A stretch of 64,000 nucleotides of DNA from a virus, in the IMG/VR virus record IMGVR_UViG_3300025930_000008, positions 1 through 64,000 of that record; one strand, written 5' to 3'. Every line of letters begins with the position of its first letter. The first letter of the stretch is position 1. Below the pieces are notes generated by a model. That model was not told where the DNA came from. It saw nothing but the letters and a program-made list of their open reading frames with translations, and did not search any database. Positions 34,759 to 48,080 of the stretch are shown here, in pieces. The position numbers were made by a program, and so were the translations under genes.

Positions 34759-34766
34759 ATAGATTA

Positions 34767-34839
34767 TAGCTCCGGTAGGAATTGAACCTACGCATGGAGG
34801 CTTATGAAACCTCTGCCTTAACCACTTGGCTACGGAGCC
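34767..34839 (-). tRNA. tRNA-Met(CAT), elongator (or Ile2)
   Basis: cloverleaf, loop TTCATAA. Confidence 0.85.
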
Positions 34840-34888
34840 AGGAGGGACCTGAGTTATTCATCCTCTTGAGGCACGGTCCCAATGCCTA

Positions 34889-34962
34889 CGGGATCGACGG
34901 GACTTGAACCCGCGACCTCCTGCGTGACAGGCAGGCGCTCTAACCGACTGAGCTACGACCCC
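34889..34962 (-). tRNA. tRNA-Asp(GTC)
   Basis: cloverleaf, loop CTGTCAC. Confidence 0.95.
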
Positions 34963-35309
34963 TATGCTTGACCCCACTGACCAGCCCGAACTAAATCCAT
35001 TAGGCTACCGCCAGCTTCGATCCAGATAGTCAACGCTAGCTGAGCTATCTGTGCTTCTTTATTATTCGGAATCCTGATATGATCCTTGCTTGCTACCGCC
35101 TGCATCTTCGCCACGATATAATGGTGAACGTTACGGTGTCCAGTAGGACAGAGCGGTACAGTCTCGGGATGCCACAAACCTATGCCGGTGTCAGGTCGCC
35201 AGAACTTCTGCCACGCTTGAGGCACTACATGATGTAGCTCTTGGGCTATAGGTTTGGGCCTATGGAACATATGCGCATCGCATGTGCGCGCTGTTGTCAC
35301 AGGTATCAT
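34962..35309 (-). CDS. HNH-like protein
   Basis: ELHHVVP...LCPTGHRNVH. Confidence 0.6.
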   Translation of the reverse strand: MIPVTTARTCDAHMFHRPKPIAQELHHVVPQAWQKFWRPDTGIGLWHPETVPLCPTGHRNVHHYIVAKMQAVASKDHIRIPNNKEAQIAQLALTIWIEAGGSLMDLVRAGQWGQA

Positions 35310-35317
35310 ACGTATTA

Positions 35318-35388
35318 AGCACCCGAAGGGAATCGAACCCTCAATCTCTGCTTGGAAGGCAGGGGTTATACCATTTAACTACGAGTGC
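35318..35388 (-). tRNA. tRNA-Gly(TCC)
   Basis: cloverleaf, loop CTTCCAA. Confidence 0.9.
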
Positions 35389-35663
35389 ATGTTACGACAG
35401 GTCCAGCAAAGGTAATCATCCATGGCTGCTCGGCGTCCGCAACCATTCCCGCAGCGATTGGAAGCCACCATCCTCTTGACATTCTCGTCGGGCGTAGCCT
35501 TGACATTCGTAGCATTCAAGAAGATGCTTGATGATCGCCTCGCACTCCGCGCTGCTAATTGGCGGGTCTGTTGGTGGACGCCCACCCATCGCTTGTATCC
35601 TTTGAGATAACGTCCTTTCCGCCACTTACGCTTCGCTCCCTGTAGTGGTTTCTGTTGTGGCAT
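35379..35663 (-). CDS. hypothetical protein with C-terminal Zn ribbon
   Basis: CGNGC...DDYLCWTCR; stop is TAG at nt 8-10 of tRNA-Gly. Confidence 0.6.
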   Translation of the reverse strand: MPQQKPLQGAKRKWRKGRYLKGYKRWVGVHQQTRQLAARSARRSSSIFLNATNVKATPDENVKRMVASNRCGNGCGRRAAMDDYLCWTCRNMHS

Positions 35664-35664
35664 A

Positions 35665-35736
35665 TGGAGGATGAGGGAATCGAACCCTCAACTCCTGCGT
35701 GCAAGGCAGGCATGTTCCCGTTAGCACTAATCCCCC
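35665..35736 (-). tRNA. tRNA-Ala(TGC)
   Basis: G3:U70, loop CTTGCAC. Confidence 0.9.
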
Positions 35737-35945
35737 GCGTTGACTGGCTCAATTATGCCAGGCATGGCCCATCTTGTCAAGGCTGTTCTTCGACAGTCTG
35801 AGCATAGGTAGTCATCCCATGGTAAGAGTACAGGTTCACCGCACTCAGGACATGCTACCCCGTATTTATTCAACAACGTCTGTTCCGCTTTGCGTGCAGC
35901 CTGAGCGTAATAATCCCGCCACAATTGCGTAGTCGGGTCTACCAT
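35727..35945 (-). CDS. hypothetical protein with Zn ribbon
   Basis: CPEC...DDYLCSDCR; stop inside tRNA-Ala. Confidence 0.6.
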   Translation of the reverse strand: MVDPTTQLWRDYYAQAARKAEQTLLNKYGVACPECGEPVLLPWDDYLCSDCRRTALTRWAMPGIIEPVNAGD

Positions 35946-35949
35946 ATCA

Positions 35950-36022
35950 AGCCGTCCAGGGGACTTGAACCCCTAACCCCCTGCTTACAAGGCAGGCGCT
36001 CTGCCAATTGAGCTAGGACGGC
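35950..36022 (-). tRNA. tRNA-Thr(TGT)
   Basis: cloverleaf, loop CTTGTAA. Confidence 0.95.
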
Positions 36023-36024
36023 AG

Positions 36025-36669
36025 CTAGTGGAGCGCTGCCCATGTGCGCGCCCCAACTGTTCCATCTGCGGGTAGATTATGTGCCCGCTGGAACGCCTTG
36101 ACTGCTCGCTCAGTATTCTTTCCAAAGAATGGATTGTATCGGTTGCTGTTCGGCTTACCAGTGGCACCGGTTGAGAAATCTCGGATGCCATTATCATACA
36201 GAAGTTTCTTGAGCCGGACAACCGATGGACCCTTGGACTTATACTTGAGTACAGGGTCTACGTTGGCATCCTTGACAGCCGGGTAGCTACCGGGCTTCCA
36301 TTTAATATGCCACCACTCACTAGGAGCATCTGACCATCGTTTCGCAAAACCGTACTTGGCTCCGATCTGATCCACGATGTGACGCATTTGCGGTGTAGCA
36401 AGATCGACCGCCAGCCCCCATCCGTGATTTGAAGTACCTGGGTGGGCAGCGAGATTACCACGTCCTGACCGCCACAAATTCCATAGGTATTGCTGCTGTG
36501 CGTACGTCCGGTACGAGGACATACCGCCAGTTGGTCGAAGAGTAACCCCATACTTACGAACACTCTCCGCGTTCATTGCGTTCCATGCCTTTGCCGCGTC
36601 CTTTCGTAGACGGCCACCGGCAATGTCGCCTAGAGCAACGCCGGGTAGTCTGCCATTAAGGTAAGCCAT
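36025..36669 (-). CDS. endolysin: M15 (VanY-like) peptidase + PG-binding domain
   Basis: SYRTYAQQ, PGTSNHGWGLAVD, EWWH; ADGTVGARTW. Confidence 0.9.
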   Translation of the reverse strand: MAYLNGRLPGVALGDIAGGRLRKDAAKAWNAMNAESVRKYGVTLRPTGGMSSYRTYAQQQYLWNLWRSGRGNLAAHPGTSNHGWGLAVDLATPQMRHIVDQIGAKYGFAKRWSDAPSEWWHIKWKPGSYPAVKDANVDPVLKYKSKGPSVVRLKKLLYDNGIRDFSTGATGKPNSNRYNPFFGKNTERAVKAFQRAHNLPADGTVGARTWAALH

Positions 36670-36704
36670 TCCATAAACTTACCCACCAGCATGGAAATGA
36701 AAAA

Positions 36705-36775
36705 CTGGGGAACTAGGATTCGAACCTAGACGCTGAGTTCCAAAGACTCATGTGCTGCCGTTACACTATTCCCCA
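36705..36775 (-). tRNA. tRNA-Gln(TTG)
   Basis: cloverleaf, loop CTTTGGA. Confidence 0.9.
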
Positions 36776-37071
36776 TCGGCGTAGCCAGGCTCAGGGTTAG
36801 AAGGTTCTTCGTTATCCATCCTGCGTAGACGCAGAACCATTTCACGAAGTTCCTTATCAGCCTTGTCCTGCGCTGCCTCAGTACGTGACGACTGCCAGCT
36901 TGACCAGTGAGCCACAACAATAGCATACAATGATAGCCAGGTAACAAAGAGAACTTGGTCACCAAAAGCTAAGGCTAATGGTATAGAAACTATCAGCCAG
37001 AAGATAGCAAACCAGCCGTGCAATCTCATGGCATGCTGTGAGTCAGCTAACCAGTTATGTACCTTCTTCAT
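36766..37071 (-). CDS. 2-TM membrane protein (start revised to MKKVHN)
   Basis: two TM helices; upstream extension lies inside the RNase P RNA. Confidence 0.55.
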   Translation of the reverse strand: MKKVHNWLADSQHAMRLHGWFAIFWLIVSIPLALAFGDQVLFVTWLSLYAIVVAHWSSWQSSRTEAAQDKADKELREMVLRLRRMDNEEPSNPEPGYADGE

Positions 37072-37087
37072 ACATATTACATTGAGT

Positions 37088-37361
37088 TGTGAATGAAAAC
37101 AGTAGGCGGGATTCTGTTCTATCCATGCATCCATCTATGCTCTCCACCTAGGGGATGCCCTTCCCCGGCTTGAGATTGCATCGCTTCGCTGACGGCAGAG
37201 GTACAAGCGCCCGCACCTATTTGTTGTGGCGGTAGGCGACCGCCTGTCGCTAAGGCTCCCTCCATTTTTACCCGCGCTCGTATCCCTTCCAGGGGATATG
37301 GCTCACGCAATGTCCCGACCTTCCTCGATATTTCTACCGCGCATGGTCGTAATCATTCACA
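37088..37361 (-). ncRNA. rnpB: RNase P RNA (compact, ~274 nt)
   Basis: P1 UGUGAAUGA/UCAUUCACA; P2 CCAUGC/GCAUGG; CR-I GAGGAAGGUCGGGA pairing with CR-V ACAGAAUCCCGCCUA (P4); P5 CAUUGC/GCGAUG followed by CAA; CR-IV AGAUGGAUG. Confidence 0.85.
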
Positions 37362-37401
37362 CTTAATGTTTATCGTCCACCAATAAACATATTATCGCCT
37401 C

Positions 37402-37566
37402 CTACCAGCGTCGTCCCCAACGGCCATCAGTGCCGCCGCCGAAGTAACTAAACAGTAGAACAACCAACAGCACAACAACTAGAATCCAAATCAGCTTGGT
37501 GAAAACAAAACCACCAACGACTGCTAGGACAACTAGGATTAGAAGTAGCAATAGTAATAGGTCCAT
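37402..37566 (-). CDS. small hydrophobic protein (actinobacterial type)
   Basis: MDLLLLLLLILVVLAVVGGFVFTKLIWILVVV...GRWGRRW; SD GGGAGG. Confidence 0.7.
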   Translation of the reverse strand: MDLLLLLLLILVVLAVVGGFVFTKLIWILVVVLLVVLLFSYFGGGTDGRWGRRW

Positions 37567-37609
37567 GATCCTCCCTTCATGCTATTAGCATACAGGAGGG
37601 CACGGATAA

Positions 37610-37680
37610 AGCGGCTAGCGGGAATCGAACCCGCAAATCTTGCATGGCAAGCAAGTAGGTTACCGTTACATCATAGCCGC
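37610..37680 (-). tRNA. tRNA-Gly(GCC)
   Basis: loop TTGCCAT. Confidence 0.9.
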
Positions 37681-37682
37681 AA

Positions 37683-37754
37683 CGCCCCTAATAGGAATCG
37701 AACCCATCCCTTGTGATCCGAAGTCACACGCGCTATCCAATACACCATAGGGGC
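37683..37754 (-). tRNA. tRNA-Arg(TCG)
   Basis: loop CTTCGGA. Confidence 0.9.
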
Positions 37755-37755
37755 A

Positions 37756-37827
37756 TACCCCCGGTAGGAATCGAACCTACGCACTCGGTTCCGTAGACCG
37801 ACGCTCTATCCACTGAGCTACGAGGGC
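37756..37827 (-). tRNA. tRNA-Arg(ACG)
   Basis: loop CTACGGA. Confidence 0.9.
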
Positions 37828-38013
37828 ACGTTCAGGTGCAATGACAGCACCATTGTTTACTAATTCCTGCGGGCTGTTATGGTAGTCACCATCATAACTA
37901 TGCTCATCCATGCGATACCAAACCGTAGATTCATCTACTCTTGTGATGGTACCCCATCCAGTATCTACCCAATACCCATTGTTGGGTAGGTATATCTTCC
38001 GCCCAACAGACAT
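37777..38013 (-). CDS. hypothetical protein reading into tRNA-Arg
   Basis: MSVGRKIYL...; last 51 nt lie inside the tRNA. Confidence 0.5.
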   Translation of the reverse strand: MSVGRKIYLPNNGYWVDTGWGTITRVDESTVWYRMDEHSYDGDYHNSPQELVNNGAVIAPERALVAQWIERRSTEPSA

Positions 38014-38029
38014 AAGAGAATGGCGCTCT

Positions 38030-38701
38030 TTACGCAAGCGCCGCGAGAGCCATTGATACTTCGTGGGCAACGCTCGACTCAGCGGGTTCAAACTTACCCT
38101 CCATCCAGTCTTTGACAAGCCTAGCTTCATAGACTGAGCTAGACCCACGACCGATTAGTATGAGTAGCTTGGGACGCTGCTCGGACAGTGCCGTTAGGGC
38201 ACGGTCAGCAAACGCCTTTTCCTGTTCCGTGAGCAAATGAACGATAGATTTGGGTGTACCATTTCTGTCGTGAAGGTCACGGTGACAGTCTATGCAAACA
38301 GGGATGCAGTTTTCCTTGCGGTTAGACCACACTCTCTCGTAGGAATCTAGCTCTCGCAGAATCCAACGGTTGACAAAGTGGTGCTTGGTACTGTCGCCTT
38401 CCTTACCACAAAGTCTACAGGGTGGAGCAACTCTTCTCTGCTCTCTGAACTTATCCCTGCGCCTGCGTATGAGGTCAGGTATCTCGGGAATCTGACCAAG
38501 CGCTTCCCTGAGTCGCTTAAGACATTCAGCCTGCTTAATGCCAGCCTCAAGCAAATCTTCTAGGTCCACATTCTCAACGGACGCCAGCAATTCAAGCTGT
38601 TCATCCGTAGCCTTCTGATGGCTCTGGTTTATCTCAAACCAGTGATGCGGATTGAGGCATGGACTATCACAGCCGATGCCGATGTGCCTTGCGCGACTCA
38701 A
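38030..38701 (-). CDS. HNH-domain protein
   Basis: CRLC...KHHFV...NCIPVCIDCHRDLH. Confidence 0.7.
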   Translation of the reverse strand: MSRARHIGIGCDSPCLNPHHWFEINQSHQKATDEQLELLASVENVDLEDLLEAGIKQAECLKRLREALGQIPEIPDLIRRRRDKFREQRRVAPPCRLCGKEGDSTKHHFVNRWILRELDSYERVWSNRKENCIPVCIDCHRDLHDRNGTPKSIVHLLTEQEKAFADRALTALSEQRPKLLILIGRGSSSVYEARLVKDWMEGKFEPAESSVAHEVSMALAALA

Positions 38702-38715
38702 ACCTTCCCCCTTTC

Positions 38716-39024
38716 TTACGTTTCGGTATCCTCCCTACACTTAGGGCAGAGATAGTCGTCATCGAGCGTGAAGTATGTCTCAACACACTCACCACAAGTA
38801 GCATTACCTACGGGTGGAGCCAATACCTCCACCTCTTGGATCTGATAGCGCGGGCGATGCTTCTGATGATGGTAGAGAACCGTCAGCCTACCCTCTTTGA
38901 GCGCCTTGTGATAGCTGCTCTTAGGATTGTCACGAATCTCTTTCAACCGCGCGACTACTTCATCAGGAGAGTGTAGATCACGCCCCTTCTGAACAGTCTT
39001 GGCCTTGTACCAATCAACCTGCAT
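38716..39024 (-). CDS. hypothetical protein with C-terminal Zn ribbon
   Basis: CGEC...DDYLCPKCR. Confidence 0.65.
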   Translation of the reverse strand: MQVDWYKAKTVQKGRDLHSPDEVVARLKEIRDNPKSSYHKALKEGRLTVLYHHQKHRPRYQIQEVEVLAPPVGNATCGECVETYFTLDDDYLCPKCREDTET

Positions 39025-39364
39025 CGCGGCACTCCGGGCAAAGGTAATCGTCCCCAAAGAACGGGGACTCACACTCAGCACAGGGCTTAGCACCAGGCGG
39101 AACACCTTCGTTGAGTACCATTACAGCCCAAGGCTTAGCGACGGGTTCTTCCTCATCCTTATCAGGAATCTTTACCATCATCTTCTTCCCGGTACCCATA
39201 GGAGTTTCGGGTCGGACCTTAGAGTTGTAATGAATCTCCAACTCAGAGTCAGCGTGCCTTCCAGCGCCCTTGCTAATCTTAGCCGCGTACTTCTCGGCTT
39301 CGTCCAAGGTGGCGAAGGTCTTGAGTGGGTATGCGCTTCTGACAATCACCAAGGCCACGTCCAT
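39014..39364 (-). CDS. hypothetical protein with C-terminal Zn ribbon
   Basis: CAEC...DDYLCPECR. Confidence 0.65.
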   Translation of the reverse strand: MDVALVIVRSAYPLKTFATLDEAEKYAAKISKGAGRHADSELEIHYNSKVRPETPMGTGKKMMVKIPDKDEEEPVAKPWAVMVLNEGVPPGAKPCAECESPFFGDDYLCPECRDAG

Positions 39365-39531
39365 CCGATGACAACAGGACCAATATGAAAGGTATACACC
39401 TTCCCTTGTGTCTCTGCATCGAGAATTGTCTTAGCGACAAAGAAGAATGGGATGCCCCATAGCTTCATCCTAAACTGTCCGTCGATCTGTTGCATGGCCC
39501 CAGGATACCAGGGCGTCAGGGGAAATGCAAG

Positions 39532-39604
39532 TAGCGCGTACGGGAATCGAACCCGTGTTACCGCCTTGAGAGGGCGGCGTATTAGGCCACTATACTAACG
39601 CGCC
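39532..39604 (-). tRNA. tRNA-Glu(CTC)
   Basis: loop CTCTCAA. Confidence 0.9.
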
Positions 39605-39725
39605 ATGTAGGGACGTTCATTTGTCGCTTTGGGCCACTCCCTATTAGGGGAGGTACGCTCGCCACACGTACAACTGACACGGGTTCAATACCCGCCGCCT
39701 CTTGACACGGGGTATCCGCCCGTCC

Positions 39726-40100
39726 CTAAGTTCTGTGTTCCTGGCAGAGAAAGTCACCGGGTAGCGCCGGGTCCCCACACTCTGCACAAAGTAGCTCACC
39801 ATCGAGCGGTTGGGAATTCAATGCGTCAACTCTTTCCTTGCCCGTGGCAAGAAGTGCGTACCACTTACGCTTGAACTCGGTATCCTGTAGGTTAACAGAG
39901 CCAAGGTCATGCCAACTGTTCGGTTGCTCCGTATGACCAATACAAATCCAAGCCGAACTATACTTCTTAGTTGTTTTGCCTTCTTTCTCTACGGGTGCAG
40001 CAGGCAAAGTAAACATATACCACTGATTTGCAGCTTCATGCTCAGGATATCGCATCTTCTTCGCTATCGTTTTGTTACGCAGTTCACGAATGTTACCCAT
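39726..40100 (-). CDS. hypothetical protein with C-terminal Zn ribbon
   Basis: CAEC...GDFLCQEHR; ATG 3 nt after tRNA-Lys. Confidence 0.65.
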   Translation of the reverse strand: MGNIRELRNKTIAKKMRYPEHEAANQWYMFTLPAAPVEKEGKTTKKYSSAWICIGHTEQPNSWHDLGSVNLQDTEFKRKWYALLATGKERVDALNSQPLDGELLCAECGDPALPGDFLCQEHRT

Positions 40101-40103
40101 CAA

Positions 40104-40177
40104 TACCCCCACTAGGACTCGAACCTAGAACCTTGAGATTAAAAGTCTCCTACTCTAACCAATTGAGTTATGGGGGC
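40104..40177 (-). tRNA. tRNA-Lys(TTT)
   Basis: loop CTTTTAA. Confidence 0.9.
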
Positions 40178-40185
40178 GCGTCCCC

Positions 40186-40614
40186 TCATACGAGGATGAG
40201 GGGAGTCACATCTACCGACTCTAGATGCTCAAAGTATCCATCCCACGGACGATACATTCGGTTCGTACGCTTCTGGTTATTGTCTGCGTGGCAGAGTCGC
40301 TGCGCAGTATAAGCATCCTGTAGGTCTGCCTTAACAGCCGGGATGGTCCACGCTCCATGAGAGCCGAACGTTCCTCCGGTTGTATAGGTGACGACTACTA
40401 GATAAGCATTCTGACCTGGCTCGATTTCATCGTAACCATAAATATCATCATAATCACTCAACTGCTGCGCGTCCCAGCCAGTTAGCTGAGTTGTGCTGAT
40501 CTTATTGATCGACACGGTAAGACCATAGTCTCCCTGATGGAGCCATGGTCCGTCGCCTTCCTCTGGCGGACTTATCTGGTAAGTATACTCAGAGAACTCT
40601 ACCCAATAGGTCAT
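40186..40614 (-). CDS. hypothetical phage protein
   Basis: 142 aa, YLVVVTYTTGGTFG...PWDGYFE. Confidence 0.65.
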   Translation of the reverse strand: MTYWVEFSEYTYQISPPEEGDGPWLHQGDYGLTVSINKISTTQLTGWDAQQLSDYDDIYGYDEIEPGQNAYLVVVTYTTGGTFGSHGAWTIPAVKADLQDAYTAQRLCHADNNQKRTNRMYRPWDGYFEHLESVDVTPLILV

Positions 40615-40641
40615 CGCACGACCCTTTCTTTACTTGTTAGG

Positions 40642-40714
40642 GGTGAACGACGGGAGTCGAACCCGCATCTACATGGACCACAACCATGTGCATTACCATT
40701 ATGCTACGCTCACC
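40642..40714 (-). tRNA. tRNA-His(GTG)
   Basis: G-1:C73, loop TTGTGGT. Confidence 0.9.
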
Positions 40715-40722
40715 ATGTTCAG

Positions 40723-40805
40723 TACGCCCGGTGGGATTTGAACCCACAATGCCGCAAGGCCAGAAGGGTTTAAGCCTCCCGCGTATACCGTTCCGCCACG
40801 GGCGC
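40723..40805 (-). tRNA. tRNA-Leu(TAA)
   Basis: long variable arm, loop CTTAAAC. Confidence 0.9.
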
Positions 40806-40808
40806 TAG

Positions 40809-40881
40809 CTGCCGAGCTAGGGATCGAACCTAGACTTTCCTGATCCAGAGTCAGGCGTGTTTCCAGTTACACCACTCGGCA
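40809..40881 (-). tRNA. tRNA-Gln(CTG)
   Basis: loop CTCTGGA. Confidence 0.9.
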
Positions 40882-41123
40882 ATAATCTTCCTATCCATGG
40901 CGACAATCTTACCACGGCCATTGAAATCGTGCTGTCTCAACGTCCAATAGATCGTAGGCTCATCAATATCCTCCGCCTTAGGTTTAGTTAGCTGCCAGCG
41001 TCTGGAATGCGTCCGACAAAATACCTTGCCAGGGACCACTACATGCCCACAGACATAACACATACCCGTACTATCACGTCCATGACGCTTAGGATTAAGC
41101 TCACGAAATAGTTCCTTGGTCAT
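40851..41123 (-). CDS. hypothetical Zn-finger protein reading into tRNA-Gln
   Basis: CYVC...FCRTH; ATG 2 nt after tRNA-Leu. Confidence 0.55.
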   Translation of the reverse strand: MTKELFRELNPKRHGRDSTGMCYVCGHVVVPGKVFCRTHSRRWQLTKPKAEDIDEPTIYWTLRQHDFNGRGKIVAMDRKIIAEWCNWKHA

Positions 41124-41125
41124 AG

Positions 41126-41207
41126 TACCGGGAGCGGGATTTGAACCCGCACGCTTATCAGGCATCGGGGTTTGAGGCCGACGTGTCTACCATTCCACCA
41201 TCCCGGC
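41126..41207 (-). tRNA. tRNA-Leu(CAA)
   Basis: loop CTCAAAC. Confidence 0.9.
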
Positions 41208-41215
41208 ATAGGTTA

Positions 41216-41287
41216 TAGCGCGACGGGGAATCGAACCCCGGTTACAGGCTTGAAAGGCCCGCGTCCTAACCATTAAACGACCGCGCC
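41216..41287 (-). tRNA. tRNA-Glu(TTC)
   Basis: loop CTTTCAA. Confidence 0.9.
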
Positions 41288-41363
41288 TAGCGAGAGAGTC
41301 GGATGAAGTGAACACGCAGCGTGTTCTATGAGGGTAGGATAACCGCTCTCTCATACCTACCAA

Positions 41364-41436
41364 TGGGCACGGTTGGAATCGAACCAACGACTTCCACCTT
41401 ATCAGAGTGGCGCTCTAACCGCTGAACTACGTGCCC
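41364..41436 (-). tRNA. tRNA-Ile(GAT)
   Basis: loop CTGATAA. Confidence 0.95.
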
Positions 41437-41437
41437 G

Positions 41438-42175
41438 TTAGGGTAATTGCCTTAGAGAATGCTTGCCCATCGGGATGCAAGCCTCACCATCATCATTCAA
41501 GATAGTCTCCAAGTCCTCAACTCGTAAGAAACAATCTCCGTCCAGACCCCAGGTCTTGCCCCAGGAGTTGCGCAAGCGTACCACATGAAGCTCGCCGTGT
41601 CCAGGGAATCGACGCTTGAGGGCATGACCGCGTACACAAATAGCATGACCACCGACGTGCTGTCCAGAAATGTCAAGCAGCCCGGAAGGGTCCGGGTCAA
41701 ACATGCTATCGCGCCACCAAATGCCAATTTCCACGACACCGTGGTTAGATAAGGTGGCTAGTACGTCATCAATGCTGAACGCCCAACGGTATGAGTCAAT
41801 GAACCCATACTGTTGCATGATCTTCGCACCTGACAATACAGAAGTACCATCGTTGTGCGGATTAGCGCCAGGGTATGCTCCACCCGGCCAAGGATCATTC
41901 TTTTGAGCTTCCCAATAGACCTTTTGCTCTGCAAAGCTATTGGAAATACCTCGCGTGTGATCTTTGTACGCTGAGGCGCAGTGGCTCCATGAGAAACCTA
42001 CACAAGCACCCTCTTGTCCCTGGTCTAACCAGACTGGACACTGCCAAGTCTTAGTCTTTAGCGTCTCGGGGACCAGACCACGGATATCGTAGTCCTTTGA
42101 GCGGTCATCGAACTCTTGGAGTCTATCGAGCCGCCTGTCTTGTGTATCTGTACCGTCGCGTAGAGTAGGCATCAC
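41438..42175 (-). CDS. papain-like (C1) cysteine peptidase
   Basis: DQGQEGACVGFS, GGHAI, RNSWGKTWG. Confidence 0.85.
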   Translation of the reverse strand: MMPTLRDGTDTQDRRLDRLQEFDDRSKDYDIRGLVPETLKTKTWQCPVWLDQGQEGACVGFSWSHCASAYKDHTRGISNSFAEQKVYWEAQKNDPWPGGAYPGANPHNDGTSVLSGAKIMQQYGFIDSYRWAFSIDDVLATLSNHGVVEIGIWWRDSMFDPDPSGLLDISGQHVGGHAICVRGHALKRRFPGHGELHVVRLRNSWGKTWGLDGDCFLRVEDLETILNDDGEACIPMGKHSLRQLP

Positions 42176-42194
42176 CCATTACGCTACGGAGGCA

Positions 42195-42266
42195 TGGCGA
42201 ATATTGGAGTCGAACCAATGACGCGAGGTTCTTCAGACCTCCGCTCTACCACTGAGCTAATTCGCC
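42195..42266 (-). tRNA. tRNA-Phe(GAA)
   Basis: loop CTGAAGA. Confidence 0.9.
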
Positions 42267-42348
42267 AAGTGAAGGCGGTTCGCCCCGCACCTTACGAACC
42301 CGAATCGTACGCGGTGGGCATAGGACACTAGTAATCCATTACCGCCAG

Positions 42349-42438
42349 CGGAGAGTGTAGGATTCGAACCCACGCGCCGGTTCAAGGCCGACCAACGGTT
42401 TTCAAGACCGCCCCAATAGTCCACTCTGGCAACTCTCC
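42349..42438 (-). tRNA. tRNA-Ser(TGA)
   Basis: long variable arm, loop CTTGAAA. Confidence 0.9.
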
Positions 42439-42451
42439 ATGTCGTGTATAA

Positions 42452-42871
42452 ATAAGCTGCGAGAGGCATAGCGTCCGCAGCTAAGATAGCCCGAATTGCA
42501 AGGTAAAGGTCAGGCCCTAGGCTCATCTGGCACAGCCGGGGTGTCCGTCCCTACGTAGGTTCATTCCAGGCCACGACTACCTAGCTGAAACCTATACCTC
42601 GGAGGCGTTCGCAGCCCCAAGCGGGTGAAGAACCACTTCAACCTTTAAGTTTAGAAACCTCCTGTTCGATGACAAATGATAGACATTTCAACCGACCTGA
42701 GCGTGTCCGTGGATACTGTGTTCGCACGCAGCGGTCAAGCACTCGGCCCCATATCCTTTTCGGCTGGCTACTCCGTCGCCCTTGCACAGTCATAGGTTTC
42801 TAAGGGTTCCCGCCCTCCACCTAATCTTCCCGCACAGTATGTGTCAGTCTATAAGCCTCAGGTTCTCAGCC
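42452..42871 (-). ncRNA. large structured ncRNA candidate (~420 nt)
   Basis: no credible ORF; long-range helices ACCUGAG/CUCAGGU, AUACUGUG/CACAGUAU, UUAGAAACCU/AGGUUUCUAA; 3' hairpin AGCUGCG/CGCAGCU. Confidence 0.6.
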
Positions 42872-42872
42872 A

Positions 42873-43120
42873 CTATTGGCCCTGTCCTAACCACCCTTGT
42901 AGGTGACTTTTATCTGCGACAACCTCTACATTGAGAGGGTCCCATGGTTGGGGCTGATCCCGTAGTGATTCATCCTCGGGATTTTCTGCCACAATCCAAG
43001 TGATGCCAGGATCGCTGTGAGCATACTCCCCCCAATACTTCAATGCATCGGCTTCGCTCACCACTCGGCCATACAGACCGTAGTAGTGATTCAAGATAAG
43101 GTATCTGACCTTAGTCTTGC
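42873..43120 (-). CDS. hypothetical protein (start uncertain)
   Basis: open frame between tRNA-Cys and the ncRNA. Confidence 0.4.
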
Positions 43121-43121
43121 A

Positions 43122-43192
43122 AGGCAAGGACGGGAGTCGAACCCGTGTTACAGGTTTTGCAGACCCGCGCGTAGCCATTCCGCCACCTTGCC
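43122..43192 (-). tRNA. tRNA-Cys(GCA)
   Basis: loop CTGCAAA, U73. Confidence 0.9.
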
Positions 43193-43306
43193 ATTACGTC
43201 GTAGACATTCCTCACGGTCACAATTACATGCGTTCTGACAAACGAAACCCTTGTGACACTCACAGTCTTTGATGGGCTGTTCACAAATAGTACATTTCCA
43301 TACCAT
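43148..43306 (-). CDS. small Cys-rich protein reading into tRNA-Cys
   Basis: MVWKCTICEQPIKDCEC...; ATG 2 nt after tRNA-Asn. Confidence 0.45.
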   Translation of the reverse strand: MVWKCTICEQPIKDCECHKGFVCQNACNCDREECLRRNGKVAEWLRAGLQNL

Positions 43307-43308
43307 AG

Positions 43309-43380
43309 CTCGCCGGGTAGGACTTGAACCTACAACCATTCGGTTAACAGCCGAACGCTCTGCCATTGAGCTACCGGCGA
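43309..43380 (-). tRNA. tRNA-Asn(GTT)
   Basis: loop CTGTTAA. Confidence 0.95.
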
Positions 43381-43631
43381 CTGTTGATCCAACTATCTAG
43401 ACACGCCTTATGAGTGGGCAGTAACTCCCAATCAGCGTGCCAAGTACCCTGCACAATGTCAAAGGTTTCCGTACCTTCGTCTGACCACTCGCCACCCATG
43501 CGTTGTATTTTACACGGGATTCCCTGGCGTCCTTCCTGAGCCTGTTCAACTGTAATGATACGCCAGATCGCACATTCGCTTTTATCAAAGCGGTAGTTTG
43601 CATATATTCTACCGACTAGCGGCTCTTTCAT
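43371..43631 (-). CDS. hypothetical protein
   Basis: ATG 1 nt after tRNA-Lys; stop is TAG at nt 8-10 of tRNA-Asn. Confidence 0.55.
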   Translation of the reverse strand: MKEPLVGRIYANYRFDKSECAIWRIITVEQAQEGRQGIPCKIQRMGGEWSDEGTETFDIVQGTWHADWELLPTHKACLDSWINSRR

Positions 43632-43632
43632 A

Positions 43633-43705
43633 TGCCCCCAACAGGGATCGAACCTGTGACCTTGAGATTAAGAGTCTCCTGCTCTACCGGCTGAGCTATA
43701 GGGGC
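43633..43705 (-). tRNA. tRNA-Lys(CTT)
   Basis: loop CTCTTAA. Confidence 0.95.
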
Positions 43706-43769
43706 GATGATTGGTCATTCCCCTTACCCCTAGGGAATCGTTACTGGATGGGCAACCAATCAAGTTGTA

Positions 43770-43849
43770 TGGCGGGTGGAGGAATCGAACCTCATTACGC
43801 TCTCGCCAGCTAGGTTATGAGCCTTGCTGCCCAAACCTGGGCACCCGCG
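43770..43849 (-). tRNA. atypical tRNA(CAT), initiator-like
   Basis: C1xC72 mismatch, loop CTCATAA, shrunken D-arm, extra variable arm. Confidence 0.65.
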
Positions 43850-43863
43850 TCGTAAATTTGCTA

Positions 43864-43949
43864 CGGAGAGTGGGGGATTTGAACCCCCGGTACCCACTGG
43901 ATACTCCGTCTTAGCAGGACGGTGCATTAAGCCACTCTGCCAACTCTCC
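43864..43949 (-). tRNA. tRNA-Ser(GCT)
   Basis: loop CTGCTAA. Confidence 0.9.
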
Positions 43950-44135
43950 CTGTGTGATACGTGGCACCCACGTACCCCTTTTAACTAAGGCGAAAAACTC
44001 TATCAACGTACACTTAGAACTATCCGTCAATCCATCTACACGGCCGTCTGTGTAAGTCCAATAAACTCTTTCCGTCTTAGGATCATAGAGATAATCCTTC
44101 ACCATTGCGTTCGCTTCCCAACGAAAAGAAATCAT
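43911..44135 (-). CDS. hypothetical protein reading into tRNA-Ser
   Basis: ATG 1 nt after tRNA-Arg. Confidence 0.5.
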   Translation of the reverse strand: MISFRWEANAMVKDYLYDPKTERVYWTYTDGRVDGLTDSSKCTLIEFFALVKRGTWVPRITQGELAEWLNAPSC

Positions 44136-44136
44136 A

Positions 44137-44208
44137 CGGCCCCGGTGAGAATCGAACTCACATCTATCCCTTAGGAGGGGATCGTTCTGTCCATTATACT
44201 ACAGGGCC
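44137..44208 (-). tRNA. tRNA-Arg(CCT)
   Basis: loop CTCCTAA. Confidence 0.9.
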
Positions 44209-44264
44209 AGAAGCAGGGCATTTCAGCCCCACCCACGTCACCGCTTTAGGACAACGGCTGCCTG

Positions 44265-44468
44265 TCAGATATCCATAGCGCACTGGTTAACGCAATCCCG
44301 ACAACAATTGCACACCGTATCGTAATCGCCACCGATTTCCTCTGCATACGGACAGCCATGAGGAATCTCTCCCTCATTACCGCAGTTACAGAGCGGACTG
44401 ATTGCCGATAACAACCAGTCTTTGACAACCTGCTTGTAAATATGCATACGTATTTGCACAGCAGGCAT
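44265..44468 (-). CDS. Cys-rich small protein
   Basis: HGCPYAEEI...CNCCRDCVNQCAMDI. Confidence 0.6.
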   Translation of the reverse strand: MPAVQIRMHIYKQVVKDWLLSAISPLCNCGNEGEIPHGCPYAEEIGGDYDTVCNCCRDCVNQCAMDI

Positions 44469-44540
44469 AGGCCAGGATGGATTTGAACCATCGACCCGCA
44501 CCTTATAAGAGTGCCGCTCTAACCCCTGAGCTACTGGCCC
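44468..44540 (-). tRNA. tRNA-Ile(TAT)
   Basis: loop CTTATAA; body similar to Ile(GAT). Confidence 0.9.
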
Positions 44541-44549
44541 AATTAGTTA

Positions 44550-44728
44550 GAGGATCGTATATGGGGGACTTACTTCATGGATAGGTACGCACTACGCCGG
44601 GGCGACCACACCCCTCTCGGCCAGCACGCATACTCCTAGATGTAGTCAACATCGTTAGTGACCTATATCAATCCGCTTACCCTTATCCCACCTGCGCACT
44701 GTGGGCGGCAATTATCCGTCCGATCCTC
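44550..44728 (-). ncRNA. unassigned structured RNA (~180 nt)
   Basis: closing stem GAGGATCG/CGATCCTC, inner ATAGGT-CACTA/TAGTG-ACCTAT. Confidence 0.5.
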
Positions 44729-44729
44729 A

Positions 44730-44801
44730 AGCCCGCGAGGGGAATCGAACCCCTATCCCTGCTTTACGAAAGCAGTATAATAGCCGTTATACTACGCGGG
44801 C
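44730..44801 (-). tRNA. tRNA-Thr(CGT)
   Basis: loop TTCGTAA. Confidence 0.9.
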
Positions 44802-44899
44802 GACTTACTTATCAGGCACAATCATAGTGCCTTTACAGATGGGACATACCCTACCATTGTTAAGGATGCCCCCTTTCATCTTGCATTTACAATCCATAG

Positions 44900-45349
44900 T
44901 GGAGGTGGGCGGAATTGAACCGCCGTCCTGCGTACACTTGTTGACTCAGTTTCTAGCAGCTTTGTAATACAATACTGGCAACCGGTTCTGAGCCGCCTAC
45001 CCTTACTCTACCACAAGATACGGCAGACTCATGCTAGTGACTGTTTGAAATAGTCGGGAGCAGCCTGTTGTTCCGTACACCCTGCTGTCGAGATTACTCA
45101 CCACGCAATGGAAATACCATTAGAGTGGAGCCGAGTAAGCCAATTAGATTGACCGTCTAATCTTTCCAAACAAGGATTTGGGACTTTATACCCCGGCCAC
45201 GCTTTCTGTTCCTAGGTCCGTGGCTCCTGACCCGAGCGGACTAAGCCGCTAGAGCAAACGTATGAGTGTCTGCAATTATTGTTAGTGGTAGGCCACTACC
45301 CGCTGCACTAAGGCAACCGCATCTTACACAGTCGATGCCTGTCACCCCC
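44900..45349 (-). ncRNA. ssrA: tmRNA, tag (A)ADTHTFALAA
   Basis: 5' GGGGGTGACAGGCATCGAC, 3' GGCGGTTCAATTCCGCCCACCTCCA with G3:U; resume context ATAATT-GCA; tag at 45273-45241. Confidence 0.95.
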
Positions 45350-45687
45350 ATGATTATCAGCCTCCACCTAGCCTTATTAGACTAACGTCTAGCTTACGGC
45401 CTCGCTCTAGATTTGCTGACACGGAGCGAATTAAAGTTTATGCCGGATTTCTTGGACGGCTCCGGCAACCGCCCATAAGGAGTTTATGAAAGGTGGTACC
45501 TCAACAAGACCGCGATATTCGCCTTGTTCCTCTCATAGACTCCACCAAGTTATACGAGAGTCCACTGTGCCGTAGCCACTCCGAACGGTTCCTGCCGTCC
45601 CGCACTAGCCTCACGGTCTAGGCGATGGTCGGGAGACAATCTCCCCCTTGGGGCAGTCCATCCCAACTTAGAAGTAGAACTCTCTAG

Positions 45688-45757
45688 TAGACCGGGCAGG
45701 ATTCGAACCTGCAATGAACAATGATAAAGATTGTTTGTGTACCGTACACACCGGTCA
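45688..45757 (-). tRNA. non-canonical tRNA-like RNA with UUA (ochre) anticodon
   Basis: canonical T-arm GCAGG-TTCGAAT-CCTGC, 6-bp anticodon stem, loop CTTTATC, U1xU72. Confidence 0.55.
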
Positions 45758-45824
45758 AGCCCCGGCATAGGGTTCCCGCCCTATGTTACTCCGGGGTCGT
45801 CCACGGACAATTAGTCGATGGACA

Positions 45825-45896
45825 TGGGCCGCACTGGAATCGAACCAGTGACTTCCTGCGTGTCGAGCAGGCGTTCTACCGCTGAACTAGCGGCCC
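45825..45896 (-). tRNA. tRNA-Val(GAC)
   Basis: loop TCGACAC. Confidence 0.9.
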
Positions 45897-45995
45897 TAGT
45901 TACGTGAGCTAGCTTACTCACTTCGCTAGCTCACACCCAAAACAACGCCTGATTCTGACGATGCGTGAGCGGGATGGTTGACCAACCAGAACAAC

Positions 45996-46024
45996 AGTTT
46001 AGCCGATGTTCTGGCGACTGTCAA
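45996..46024 (-). promoter_or_regulatory. sigma70-type promoter within the RNA cluster
   Basis: TTGACA-N17-TAAACT. Confidence 0.65.
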
Positions 46025-46214
46025 GCTTATCGGGACGAGAGGTAAACGCCTTCTATCTTTGCCCCACTGTACTCCTGCTTGTCAATCGCGTCTGCAACAG
46101 CAAGACCAACATCTTGGCGCAAGTCAAACTTCTTGATAGGCGCCAACGTCGTCGGAATGGTGATGACCACCGTGATTGTATTATCCATGCTAAAAACGTA
46201 GCACGACTGTCAAG

Positions 46215-46286
46215 TGGACCCGGCTGGGATCGAACCAGCGACCTTCTGCTTGTAAGGCAGACGTTCTCCCACTAAACTACGGGTCC
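46215..46286 (-). tRNA. tRNA-Val(TAC)
   Basis: loop CTTACAA. Confidence 0.9.
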
Positions 46287-46427
46287 GCAGCAGGCTCCCT
46301 CATGGGGCGTACCTCCCATAGACACTACCCGACAGGTTCCCGCCTGTCAAGGCGAGGGAACCTGCGTGCTTAATCCCCGTGGGTACGCACGGATTAGGTA
46401 CTGCGATGGCCCCTGACTGATGGGCAG

Positions 46428-46499
46428 AGCCGTCACCGGGAATCGAACCCGGCTTACTAACTTACCAAGCTAGGGTAATATCCGATATACTATGACGGC
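46428..46499 (-). tRNA. tRNA-Thr(GGT)
   Basis: loop TTGGTAA. Confidence 0.85.
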
Positions 46500-46502
46500 T
46501 TA

Positions 46503-46576
<74 letters not shown>

Positions 46577-46715
46577 TTACAAATGACTGAATACATAAGT
46601 CACAGCAGAGATACCATGACTAATGAAACTCATGATACCGGTGGCAGCAGCCACCTTGAGGTACCACAATTCCTTACGGCTGAGCGTAACCTTTTCCTCA
46701 GCCTTCTTTATGGCT

Positions 46716-47066
46716 TTAAGTTTCGCTTCTTCCTTGTCCATTGAGCGCCTTGCTTTGACGCCGCTTATACCCAAAGATCAAGTAGAGCGCGACATTCCCT
46801 GCGATGAATCCCACCGCATTCAGCGGGATATAGTAGGAAAACCCTGTGTCAAGTCTCTCAACGTTGTTAGTCAACGCTGACGTGGCTAAGAGCAGATACG
46901 AAACGGCAATGAGTACAACATGGAGCGGCAGCAGAGCTACATATCCTCCCTGCTTGCGCAGTTTGAGGTAGCTCTGGGTATATACCACCACAATCAGCAC
47001 CACAAACGACACAATGCCTCCGTACAGAAAGATATTCAAGTATCGGAGGCCATCCAAAATGCTCAT
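46716..47066 (-). CDS. 3-TM membrane protein
   Basis: three hydrophobic segments. Confidence 0.6.
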   Translation of the reverse strand: MSILDGLRYLNIFLYGGIVSFVVLIVVVYTQSYLKLRKQGGYVALLPLHVVLIAVSYLLLATSALTNNVERLDTGFSYYIPLNAVGFIAGNVALYLIFGYKRRQSKALNGQGRSET

Positions 47067-47080
47067 GCTCTATTACCTAG

Positions 47081-47151
47081 CGGGGGATCGAGGATTTGAA
47101 CCCCGAAGTTCGGGTTTGGAGGCCGACAGTTTACCATTAGCTTAATCCCCC
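47081..47151 (-). tRNA. tRNA-Trp(CCA)
   Basis: loop CTCCAAA. Confidence 0.9.
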
Positions 47152-47452
47152 AGGAGCGCACGGAGGGAGCGCGAGATTCTCTCACCCCTCGGTTATGTGA
47201 ACAGACTTGTCATACGCCGACTTCACGCGGGCGGATTCTAACCATAGACCCTAAGGCGTATAGTTCATATGTGACTATACCGCGAAGGGACTCCGTTTCC
47301 ATCGAATACTCCTGAACGCATGGTGCCATCTGAAACAATCGTCATTGCCACGCCGCTTTTCGCTACTTGTATACTGCCCTCCGGGGATCAATCCATCCAG
47401 ACGCATACGTTTGCTCGCTACAGCCGTGCGCATGTATTGAGCAATGACGAAG

Positions 47453-47534
47453 TACGCCCGGAGGGACTTGAACCCCCACACCTTTCGGCATCAGGACCTA
47501 AACCTGACGTGTCTACCGATTCCACCACGGGCGC
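47453..47534 (-). tRNA. tRNA-Leu(TAG)
   Basis: loop TTTAGGT. Confidence 0.9.
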
Positions 47535-47668
47535 TAGTACCGATAACGTTCAAGGAAGGGCTGTTATCGGTGTTATCGTGCGACTGCCATTGGACCATAT
47601 TCATAGTCGAGAGCCTTGCGCCGCTGCATGATACCCCGGATTCCCGTCCGGCATATTCATGCCTGATA

Positions 47669-47751
47669 TGCGATCAGTGAGAGTCGAACTCACACGCCTG
47701 TTAGGGCACTGACCCCTCAAGCCAGCGTGTCTACCATTTCACCATGATCGC
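47669..47751 (-). tRNA. tRNA-Leu(GAG)
   Basis: loop TTGAGGG. Confidence 0.9.
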
Positions 47752-47765
47752 TAAAGATTTTGAAA

Positions 47766-47847
47766 TGGCGGGAGTAGGATTCGAACCTACGAAGGCATAG
47801 CCGTCTGATTTACAGTCAGATGCGTTTGACCGCTCCGCAACCCCGCC
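47766..47847 (-). tRNA. tRNA-Tyr(GTA)
   Basis: loop CTGTAAA. Confidence 0.95.
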
Positions 47848-48007
47848 GAATAAACACTTGGGCACCTAGATTGGGTGCGACCCTTCTCTTTCAAGTCAAC
47901 TTCCTCCTGCCTAGCCTTATCCGGGCAGATGGTTCGCCGTATCTACGGCTGATCTAGGAGTTGGCTCCCAAGCTATGTAGTTTTTGTCAGTCTACCAGAC
48001 TGTCAAG

Positions 48008-48080
48008 CGCCCCCGCCCGGATTTGAACCGGGAACCTGCGGTTTAGAAGGCCGCTGCGCTATCCGTTGCGCCACAGGGGC
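48008..48080 (-). tRNA. tRNA-Arg(TCT)
   Basis: loop CTTCTAA. Confidence 0.9.

Follow-up and report, generated by a model that had tools for sequence, protein, structure and literature searches.

Does a tRNA-rich phage carry its own gene for the RNA subunit of RNase P, and if so, what would the phage use it for? To our knowledge, RNase P RNA is one of two universal ribozymes, and its gene has been regarded as belonging only to cells and organelles. The question is raised by a short element on the minus strand of a virus record (IMG/VR record IMGVR_UViG_3300025930_000008), whose first 64,000 nucleotides were analysed here and are called the window. A preliminary description of the window proposed that the element is a compact, phage-borne RNase P RNA. 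This proposal is supported by a match to the covariance model of bacterial class A RNase P RNA (RF00010), by the catalytic core of the element, by its position in a tRNA array and by its recurrence in other phages. The coordinates of the gene, its structural elements and the associated genes are collected in Table 1.

Table 1. Positions of the RNase P RNA gene, its elements and related genes in the window
Feature	Position	Strand	Remarks
RNase P RNA gene	37089-37360	minus	272 nt, class A-derived, compact; RF00010 match; ends set by P1 pairing
P1 5' strand (GUGAAUGA..ACG)	37348-37360	minus	pairs with 37089-37101
P1 3' strand	37089-37101	minus	pairs with 37348-37360
P2 5' strand CCAUGC	37341-37346	minus	6/6 pairs canonical with GCAUGG
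P2 3' strand GCAUGG	37123-37128	minus	immediately after CR-IV
P3, 5-bp hairpin with GAAA tetraloop	37326-37339	minus	far shorter than consensus; 5 pairs canonical
CR-I / P4 5' strand GAGGAAGGUCGGGAC with bulged U	37312-37326	minus	aligned to consensus GAGGAAAGUCCGGGC
CR-V / P4 3' strand ACAGAAUCCCGCCUA	37103-37117	minus	RF00010 alignment, script check
P5 5' strand CAUUGC	37307-37312	minus	pairs with GCGAUG at 37179-37184
J5/15 CAA	37176-37178	minus	directly after P5
P15 (UCUC/GAGA), internal loop, P16 (GGGGA/UCCCC)	37141-37175	minus	
GGU, 3'-CCA-binding motif	37146-37148	minus	in P15/P16 internal loop; class A hallmark
CR-IV AUAGAUGGAU	37129-37138	minus	AGAUGAAUG-like string of J18/2; aligned to consensus
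Insert replacing specificity (S) domain	37185-37306	minus	122 nt between the two P5 strands
tRNA array	34766-48080	minus	36-37 tRNA genes and tmRNA; RNase P RNA embedded; presumed substrates
tmRNA	44899-45349	minus	RF00023, 68.8 bits
CCA-adding module protein, 1198 aa	13593-17189	minus	PolyA_pol head, RNA-binding and HD parts at residues 563-1029

Identity of the element

The RF00010 model aligns end to end (model positions 1-367) with 37087-37358 on the minus strand and scores 40.2 bits, with an E-value of 5e-11 in a local search and 1.6e-12 in the whole 107-kb record. The covariance-model search to which the preliminary description had pointed thus gives a significant match, though one below the gathering score of RF00010, which is 100 bits. 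Because the score lies under this cut-off, standard annotation overlooks the gene, which did not appear in a default Rfam scan of the window. At the locus, RF00010 gives the top Rfam match and the only significant one, with no competing family. It is also the top model in a cmscan over the RNase P clan CL00002 (class B, archaeal, type T and nuclear models), in which one lower-scoring overlapping match from the clan was dropped. Two miscalled open reading frames had been said to hide the element, and three mechanical ones do overlap it: on the minus strand 37119-37310 (63 aa) and 36766-37134 in its long form, and on the plus strand 37226-37366 (46 aa).

The full-length model match, the intact core, the position in a tRNA/tmRNA array and independent, covarying copies in other phages together argue for a compact class A-type identity. 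The element is almost certainly homologous to bacterial class A RNase P RNA and is a putative ribozyme.

Two artefacts were considered and ruled out. The gene is complete from the 5' strand of P1 through its 3' strand, which excludes an attP remnant of integration into rnpB. A chimeric assembly is excluded because many runs, and also L182, an independent contig from the rhizosphere, show the same arrangement.

The catalytic core

All helices were written out, and each pair was verified by script. The elements that the preliminary description had listed (P1, P2, a short P3, P4, P5 followed by CAA, a P15-like helix with GGU, and CR-IV) are all present on the minus strand. P1 consists of 11 canonical pairs flanking a 2x2 U/U internal loop, and 15 of the 18 P1/P2 pairs in the RF00010 alignment are canonical. 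In P4, 37313-37321 is joined to 37103-37110 by 8 canonical pairs, and the U at 37318 forms the bulge. Compared with the consensus, three of its pairs are altered on both strands, whereas the bulged U and the GGAA and ACAGAA strings are unaltered. P4 is flanked by CR-I (GAGGAA...) and CR-V (ACAGAA...), as expected of class A. The helices also follow the class A order, 5'-P1-P2-P3-P4, with 3' strands in the order P2'-P4'-P1'.

The peripheral elements are trimmed. CR-IV follows P15 directly, leaving P18 absent, and the 24 consensus positions of this GNRA-loop hairpin are reduced to 0 nt in the RF00010 alignment, as the preliminary description had anticipated. P16 is capped by a loop of 6 nt, which leaves no room for P17, and no partner for the P6 pseudoknot was found in the phage RNA. 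The pairings show that a complete core of the catalytic (C) domain is present in the predicted fold.

An unrecognizable specificity domain

The S-domain had been described as reduced. It is indeed unrecognizable, but it is not short, since 122 nt lie in its place. RF00010 leaves these 122 nt unaligned. When the insert alone was compared with Rfam, it gave only chance matches and no RNase P match at E-values up to 10. A blastn-short search against the other phage copies and the rest of the window showed no similarity. Of the class A S-domain, with its CR-II/CR-III T-loop module that reads the tRNA elbow and its helices P7-P14, nothing was found in it beyond a P8-like hairpin and a weak CR-II-like string, CCGCCACAACAAAUA, at 37218-37232. 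This string is the only hint of its ancestry. Comparison with shuffled sequences revealed no significant fold (z-score +0.66). Only one hairpin, at 37281-37298, is stable in the ensemble, and several mutually exclusive helices are possible. The S-domain is thus present in length yet unrecognizable. With no CR-II/CR-III match, no stable predicted fold and no relatives, recognition of the tRNA elbow may have been lost.

Phage and tRNA-array context

The record belongs to a phage, as shown by genes for portal, large terminase, DnaE-type polymerase, ribonucleotide reductase and endolysin. The phage is an uncultured soil phage with a genome of about 160 kb. The portal shares 42% identity with its counterparts in Gordonia phages Skog and Pupper and in Mycobacterium cluster C phages, a distant relationship that suggests an actinobacterial host. 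The phage is common in rhizosphere metagenomes, and at least 20 rhizosphere data sets contain its RNase P RNA gene.

The RNase P RNA gene lies on the same strand as the tRNAs and the tmRNA of the array. RF00005 recognizes 36 tRNAs in the array, and ARAGORN reports 38 genes including the tmRNA. Two of the ARAGORN genes, an 80-nt 'tRNA-Met' at 43770-43849 and a tRNA with anticodon UUA (an ochre suppressor) at 45687-45757 on the minus strand, do not appear among the RF00005 matches at the gathering score. The tmRNA carries an unusual tag peptide, read by ARAGORN as GQSNWLTRLHSNGISIAW. Between 36600 and 37900, no promoter-like site was found, nor any terminator-like site on the strand of the RNase P RNA. 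The array is tightly packed, with eight junctions of at most 14 nt, the tightest ranging from -1 to 3 nt and three of them from -1 to 2 nt. A 3' CCA is encoded in none of the array tRNAs and not in the tmRNA, and in essentially all of these genes the discriminator is followed by a U. The open reading frame just downstream of the RNase P RNA (36766-37071, minus strand) has its stop codon (36766-36768) inside tRNA-Gln (36705-36775). If RNase P cut this tRNA at its 5' end, the mRNA would lose its stop.

The preliminary description saw no gene resembling rnpA in the window, and the observation extends to the whole 107-kb record, in which neither rnpA (PF00825) nor PRORP (PF16953) has a match. The phage does encode a CCA-adding module within a large protein, whose N-terminal 555 residues have no match in Pfam, PHROG or the ESM Atlas. 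A CCA-adding enzyme is also encoded in genomes G021 and G015, not in G060, and it is present in G084, which is without the RNase P RNA. There is thus no strict co-occurrence of the two genes.

Conservation and a hint of expression

The independent contig L182 shares the order tRNA-Arg, tRNA-Arg, tRNA-Gly, RNase P RNA, tRNA-Gln with the window. The RNase P RNAs of the two differ by 2 substitutions, as opposed to about 50 differences in 300 nt of the open reading frame just downstream. One substitution, at 37207, changes a G-C to a G-U pair in either of two candidate helices, and the other, at 37150, falls in the L15 loop; both are compatible with the predicted fold. Divergence from L182 is about 0.4% over 37086-37638 and about 17% over 36776-37056. 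The jump at 37085 coincides exactly with the 3' end of the RNA and looks like a mosaic boundary. Since the block of low divergence also spans 278 nt upstream of the gene, it may be a recombination block rather than the outcome of selection on the RNA alone. At the upstream tRNA-Gly (GCC), L182 shows adjacent-base swaps at 37639/37640 and 37654/37655, 15 nt apart, which look like compensatory changes in two anticodon-stem pairs.

All four metatranscriptome runs, from four studies, contain contigs of at least 99% identity on 37012-37487, one of which spans 37121-37353. These contigs, of depth 2.6-3.9, are the only near-identical ones on the 1-kb stretch 36690-37700; parts of it without contig cover carry no information, and the contigs may stem from DNA carry-over. 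They give a weak hint that the RNase P RNA is expressed.

Recurrence in other phages

Compact RNase P RNAs are found on about a dozen other phage and metagenome contigs. Exact-pattern scans for both P4 halves at compact spacing yielded four viral contigs, ten metagenome contigs and one contig of a metagenome-assembled genome (MAG), and a scan with the canonical P4 added two viral contigs. These two carry compact RNAs with canonical P4 in viral tRNA arrays, at L197 976-1255 (minus strand, 171 bits) and at L198 425-705 (plus strand, 52 bits); a tmRNA 3' end stands at the start of the L198 contig. Taken together, the copies score from 20 to 174 bits against RF00010 and measure 155-297 nt. All phage copies sit within tRNA arrays, on the strand of the tRNAs. 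Two of the carrier genomes, of 163 kb and 50.5 kb, are complete and have terminal repeats; no rnpA was found in either. Anticodon-CUA tRNAs (amber suppressors, labelled Pyl by ARAGORN) head two of the arrays that carry an RNase P RNA (L068 592-666 and L178 4078-4152).

The core helices covary among these copies. Across nine phage RNAs, P2 occupies the same topological place with eight different sequences, and all 59 of its pairs are canonical. P5 starts right after P4 and ends directly before CAA or CGA, and its pairs are likewise canonical (45 of 45). For both helices, the assignment was curated by hand and the pairs were verified by script.

The periphery differs from copy to copy. Most of the other copies have a small S-domain with CR-II/CR-III-like strings, and some retain a P18-like GNRA hairpin. 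The shortest, at L136 4075-4229 (IMGVR_UViG_3300028581_000200), is about 155 nt long, lacks an S-domain and has its P5 capped by a pentaloop. It directly abuts a tRNA-Arg, and its C-domain is the closest to that of the window (51 bits with our own model). This covariance model, R1, built from the window and L182, recovered L136 and fragments only, besides itself, and it is too sequence-specific. A 270-nt copy of 146 bits (L135/L148), in which no P2/P3 was found and 11 nt separate P1 from CR-I, lies on a 318-kb record labelled 'provirus' (IMGVR_UViG_3300028840_008185). Its sequence recurs on a 452-kb metagenome contig (L181).

Other searches were less productive. A scan with a 14-mer of the P4 5' strand returned at least 120 loci, nearly all of them chance, and one weak match in 50 records. 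When 11 RNAs were aligned with MAFFT and folded with RNAalifold, P4 and two hairpins were all that emerged, as sequence alignment is unable to handle helices this divergent. No match came from blastn searches of 50,697 GenBank phage records with three of the phage RNase P RNAs, nor from megablast of the 3-kb neighbourhood.

Relatives and origin

Gordonia phages Skog and Pupper, Mycobacterium phage Cali and the near-complete uncultured relatives G084 and G096 have no match to RF00010 (E-values up to 10) or to R1. Since these closest cultured and near-complete relatives do without it, the RNase P RNA gene is dispensable for this type of phage. It is an accessory of some tRNA-rich phages rather than a fixture of the lineage. 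Relatives found by portal (22 loci) or endolysin (2 loci) also gave no RNase P match; most of them are small fragments that may not include the tRNA region.

A possible cellular counterpart is the only rnpB in the 3-Mb genome of an Acidimicrobiaceae MAG, palsa_738 (PLZW01000025.1; L190 5222-5441 / L191), which scores 152 bits and has an NN assembly gap in its S-domain. It shares the unusual P4 variant and CR-IV (AGAUGGAUG) with the phage RNA. The presence of the variant in the sole rnpB of this genome indicates that it is compatible with a cellular enzyme, and the shared strings may be a clue to the origin of the phage gene or to the host group, the P4 variant hinting at an actinobacterial, Acidimicrobiia-like source. 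The 15-mer of the P4 variant occurs in 6 of 61 genomes of the class of the MAG, and in the five checked it lies outside rnpB each time. The variant is therefore not class-wide.

Proposed function and alternatives

We think that the element probably encodes the catalytic subunit of an RNase P that works with a host protein and cuts phage pre-tRNAs. The RNA would be co-transcribed with the array, excised from the transcript and assembled with RnpA of the host, the likely partner since the phage has no rnpA. The enzyme would then cleave the 5' leaders of the phage pre-tRNAs and pre-tmRNA. In a packed array without encoded CCA, each cleavage in front of a tRNA would also free the tRNA upstream, and the freed CCA-less tRNAs would be completed by the CCA-adding enzyme of the phage. 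Given the lack of a recognizable T-loop reader in the S-domain, substrates would dock through the C-domain and the protein, with the L15 GGU contacting the tRNA 3' end and the J5/15 A contacting position -1. C-domain-only constructs and type T RNAs bind their substrates in this way, through the C-domain and protein. The benefit to the phage would be additional or host-independent capacity for tRNA 5' maturation during infection.

The same features could be read differently. The RNA could be a decoy, a poor catalyst that titrates RnpA or pre-tRNAs of the host and so re-routes or shuts down host tRNA maturation. The C-domain elements that contact RnpA (P2/P3, P15 and CR-IV/CR-V) are retained next to an unrecognizable S-domain, and any protein bound by the RNA has to come from the host. 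However, the blocks linked to catalysis (the bulged U and GGAA of P4, ACAGAA, the J5/15 A and the L15 GGU) are all retained too, and the 36 phage tRNAs themselves need RNase P, so blocking it would harm the phage. A decoy is quite improbable for these reasons. Another alternative is a functionless rnpB copy that was acquired together with tRNA genes and is now eroding, with P18 and P17 lost and the S-domain scrambled. The absence of the gene from phage relatives, the lack of a fold signal in the S-domain and the sub-threshold Rfam score would all suit such decay. The erosion, however, is strictly modular: the core helices are perfectly paired, the CR-I, CR-IV and CR-V strings are intact, and the same pattern of kept core and trimmed periphery recurs in unrelated phage contigs with compensatory changes. 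The 2 changes relative to L182, against about 17% in the neighbouring open reading frame, and the presence of the gene in so many rhizosphere data sets also speak against a decaying passenger, which is quite improbable too.

The RNA could also belong to a specialized enzyme. The replaced S-domain, possibly together with an unrecognized phage protein, could alter the substrate range, for example to prefer the CCA-less phage precursors or to make cuts that 'punctuate' a mixed tRNA/ORF transcript, and the enzyme may be independent of host RnpA. The insert has kept its full length and is not deleted as in the 155-nt L136 form. Open reading frames of the array begin right after tRNAs or end inside them, as the one that stops in tRNA-Gln does, and rnpA is absent from the record and from the two complete carrier genomes. 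Yet neither covariation nor a fold signal nor a homologue was found for the insert, the analysis turned up no candidate for a partner protein, and the L15 GGU suggests ordinary recognition of the CCA end. We regard such specialization as unlikely. A broader proposal, which also seems doubtful to us, is that a phage lineage of RNase P frees the tRNA supply from the host. With its swapped 122-nt module, and with a phage protein or none, the enzyme would target CCA-less precursors and tRNA/ORF transcripts, giving leaderless and non-stop mRNAs for the tmRNA. If true, this would be a viral RNA-processing system, possibly one that counters host defences against tRNA maturation.

Relation to known systems

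The phage RNA shares with class A RNase P RNA (RF00010; E. coli M1 RNA/rnpB, Thermotoga maritima) helices P1-P5, the P4 pseudoknot with its bulged U, the CR-I, CR-IV and CR-V strings, the J5/15 A and the GGU of the P15/P16 loop. It differs in its length (272 nt instead of about 350-400), in a P3 cut to 5 bp, in the absence of P18 and P17/P6, in an S-domain without recognizable CR-II/CR-III and in the three P4 pairs changed on both strands. It also differs in being encoded by a virus, in a tRNA array and without rnpA.

Natural minimal RNase P RNAs include the 276-nt class B RNA of Mycoplasma fermentans, the 'type T' RNAs of the Pyrobaculum type, which have lost the S-domain and measure about 200 nt, and organellar RNAs. 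They resemble the phage RNA in their trimmed periphery, retained catalytic core and similar size range. However, they are the sole and essential enzymes of cells or organelles, whereas the phage RNA is an accessory viral copy of class A descent, with a long non-homologous insert at the site of the S-domain.

Mycobacterium cluster C (Bxz1-like) and Gordonia phages are of the same phage type and carry the same module of at least 30 tRNAs and a tmRNA. In contrast to Cali, Skog and Pupper, which have no RNase P RNA match, the phage described here adds a putative processing enzyme to the set of substrates. Theta ribozymes, which are minimal HDV-like ribozymes, adjoin phage tRNAs and have been implicated in tRNA maturation (PMC10879173). 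They are small and self-cleaving in cis, unlike RNase P RNA, which acts in trans with multiple turnover and has a different fold and chemistry. In a 2024 review of RNase P, phages appear only as sources of substrates (PMC11143913). Our search of the full-text literature, a scope that covers few subscription journals and so does not prove absence, found no description of an RNase P RNA in a virus or phage. The kind of RNA is known; what is new is the class of host, a virus, and the reduced form.

Significance

As the phage copy falls below the Rfam cut-off, such genes are probably under-annotated, with open reading frames called across them. The phage copies constitute a natural deletion series of about 155-297 nt, with or without P18, P3 and the S-domain, that indicates which parts are dispensable while the ribozyme stays in use. 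This series is useful for structural work and for synthetic systems that express tRNA arrays. The viral translation toolkit, which includes tRNAs, tmRNA, CCA-adding enzymes and synthetases, is extended by this gene to the maturation of tRNA 5' ends. The recurrence of a viral RNase P RNA implies that some infections are limited by the capacity of RNase P or by access to it.
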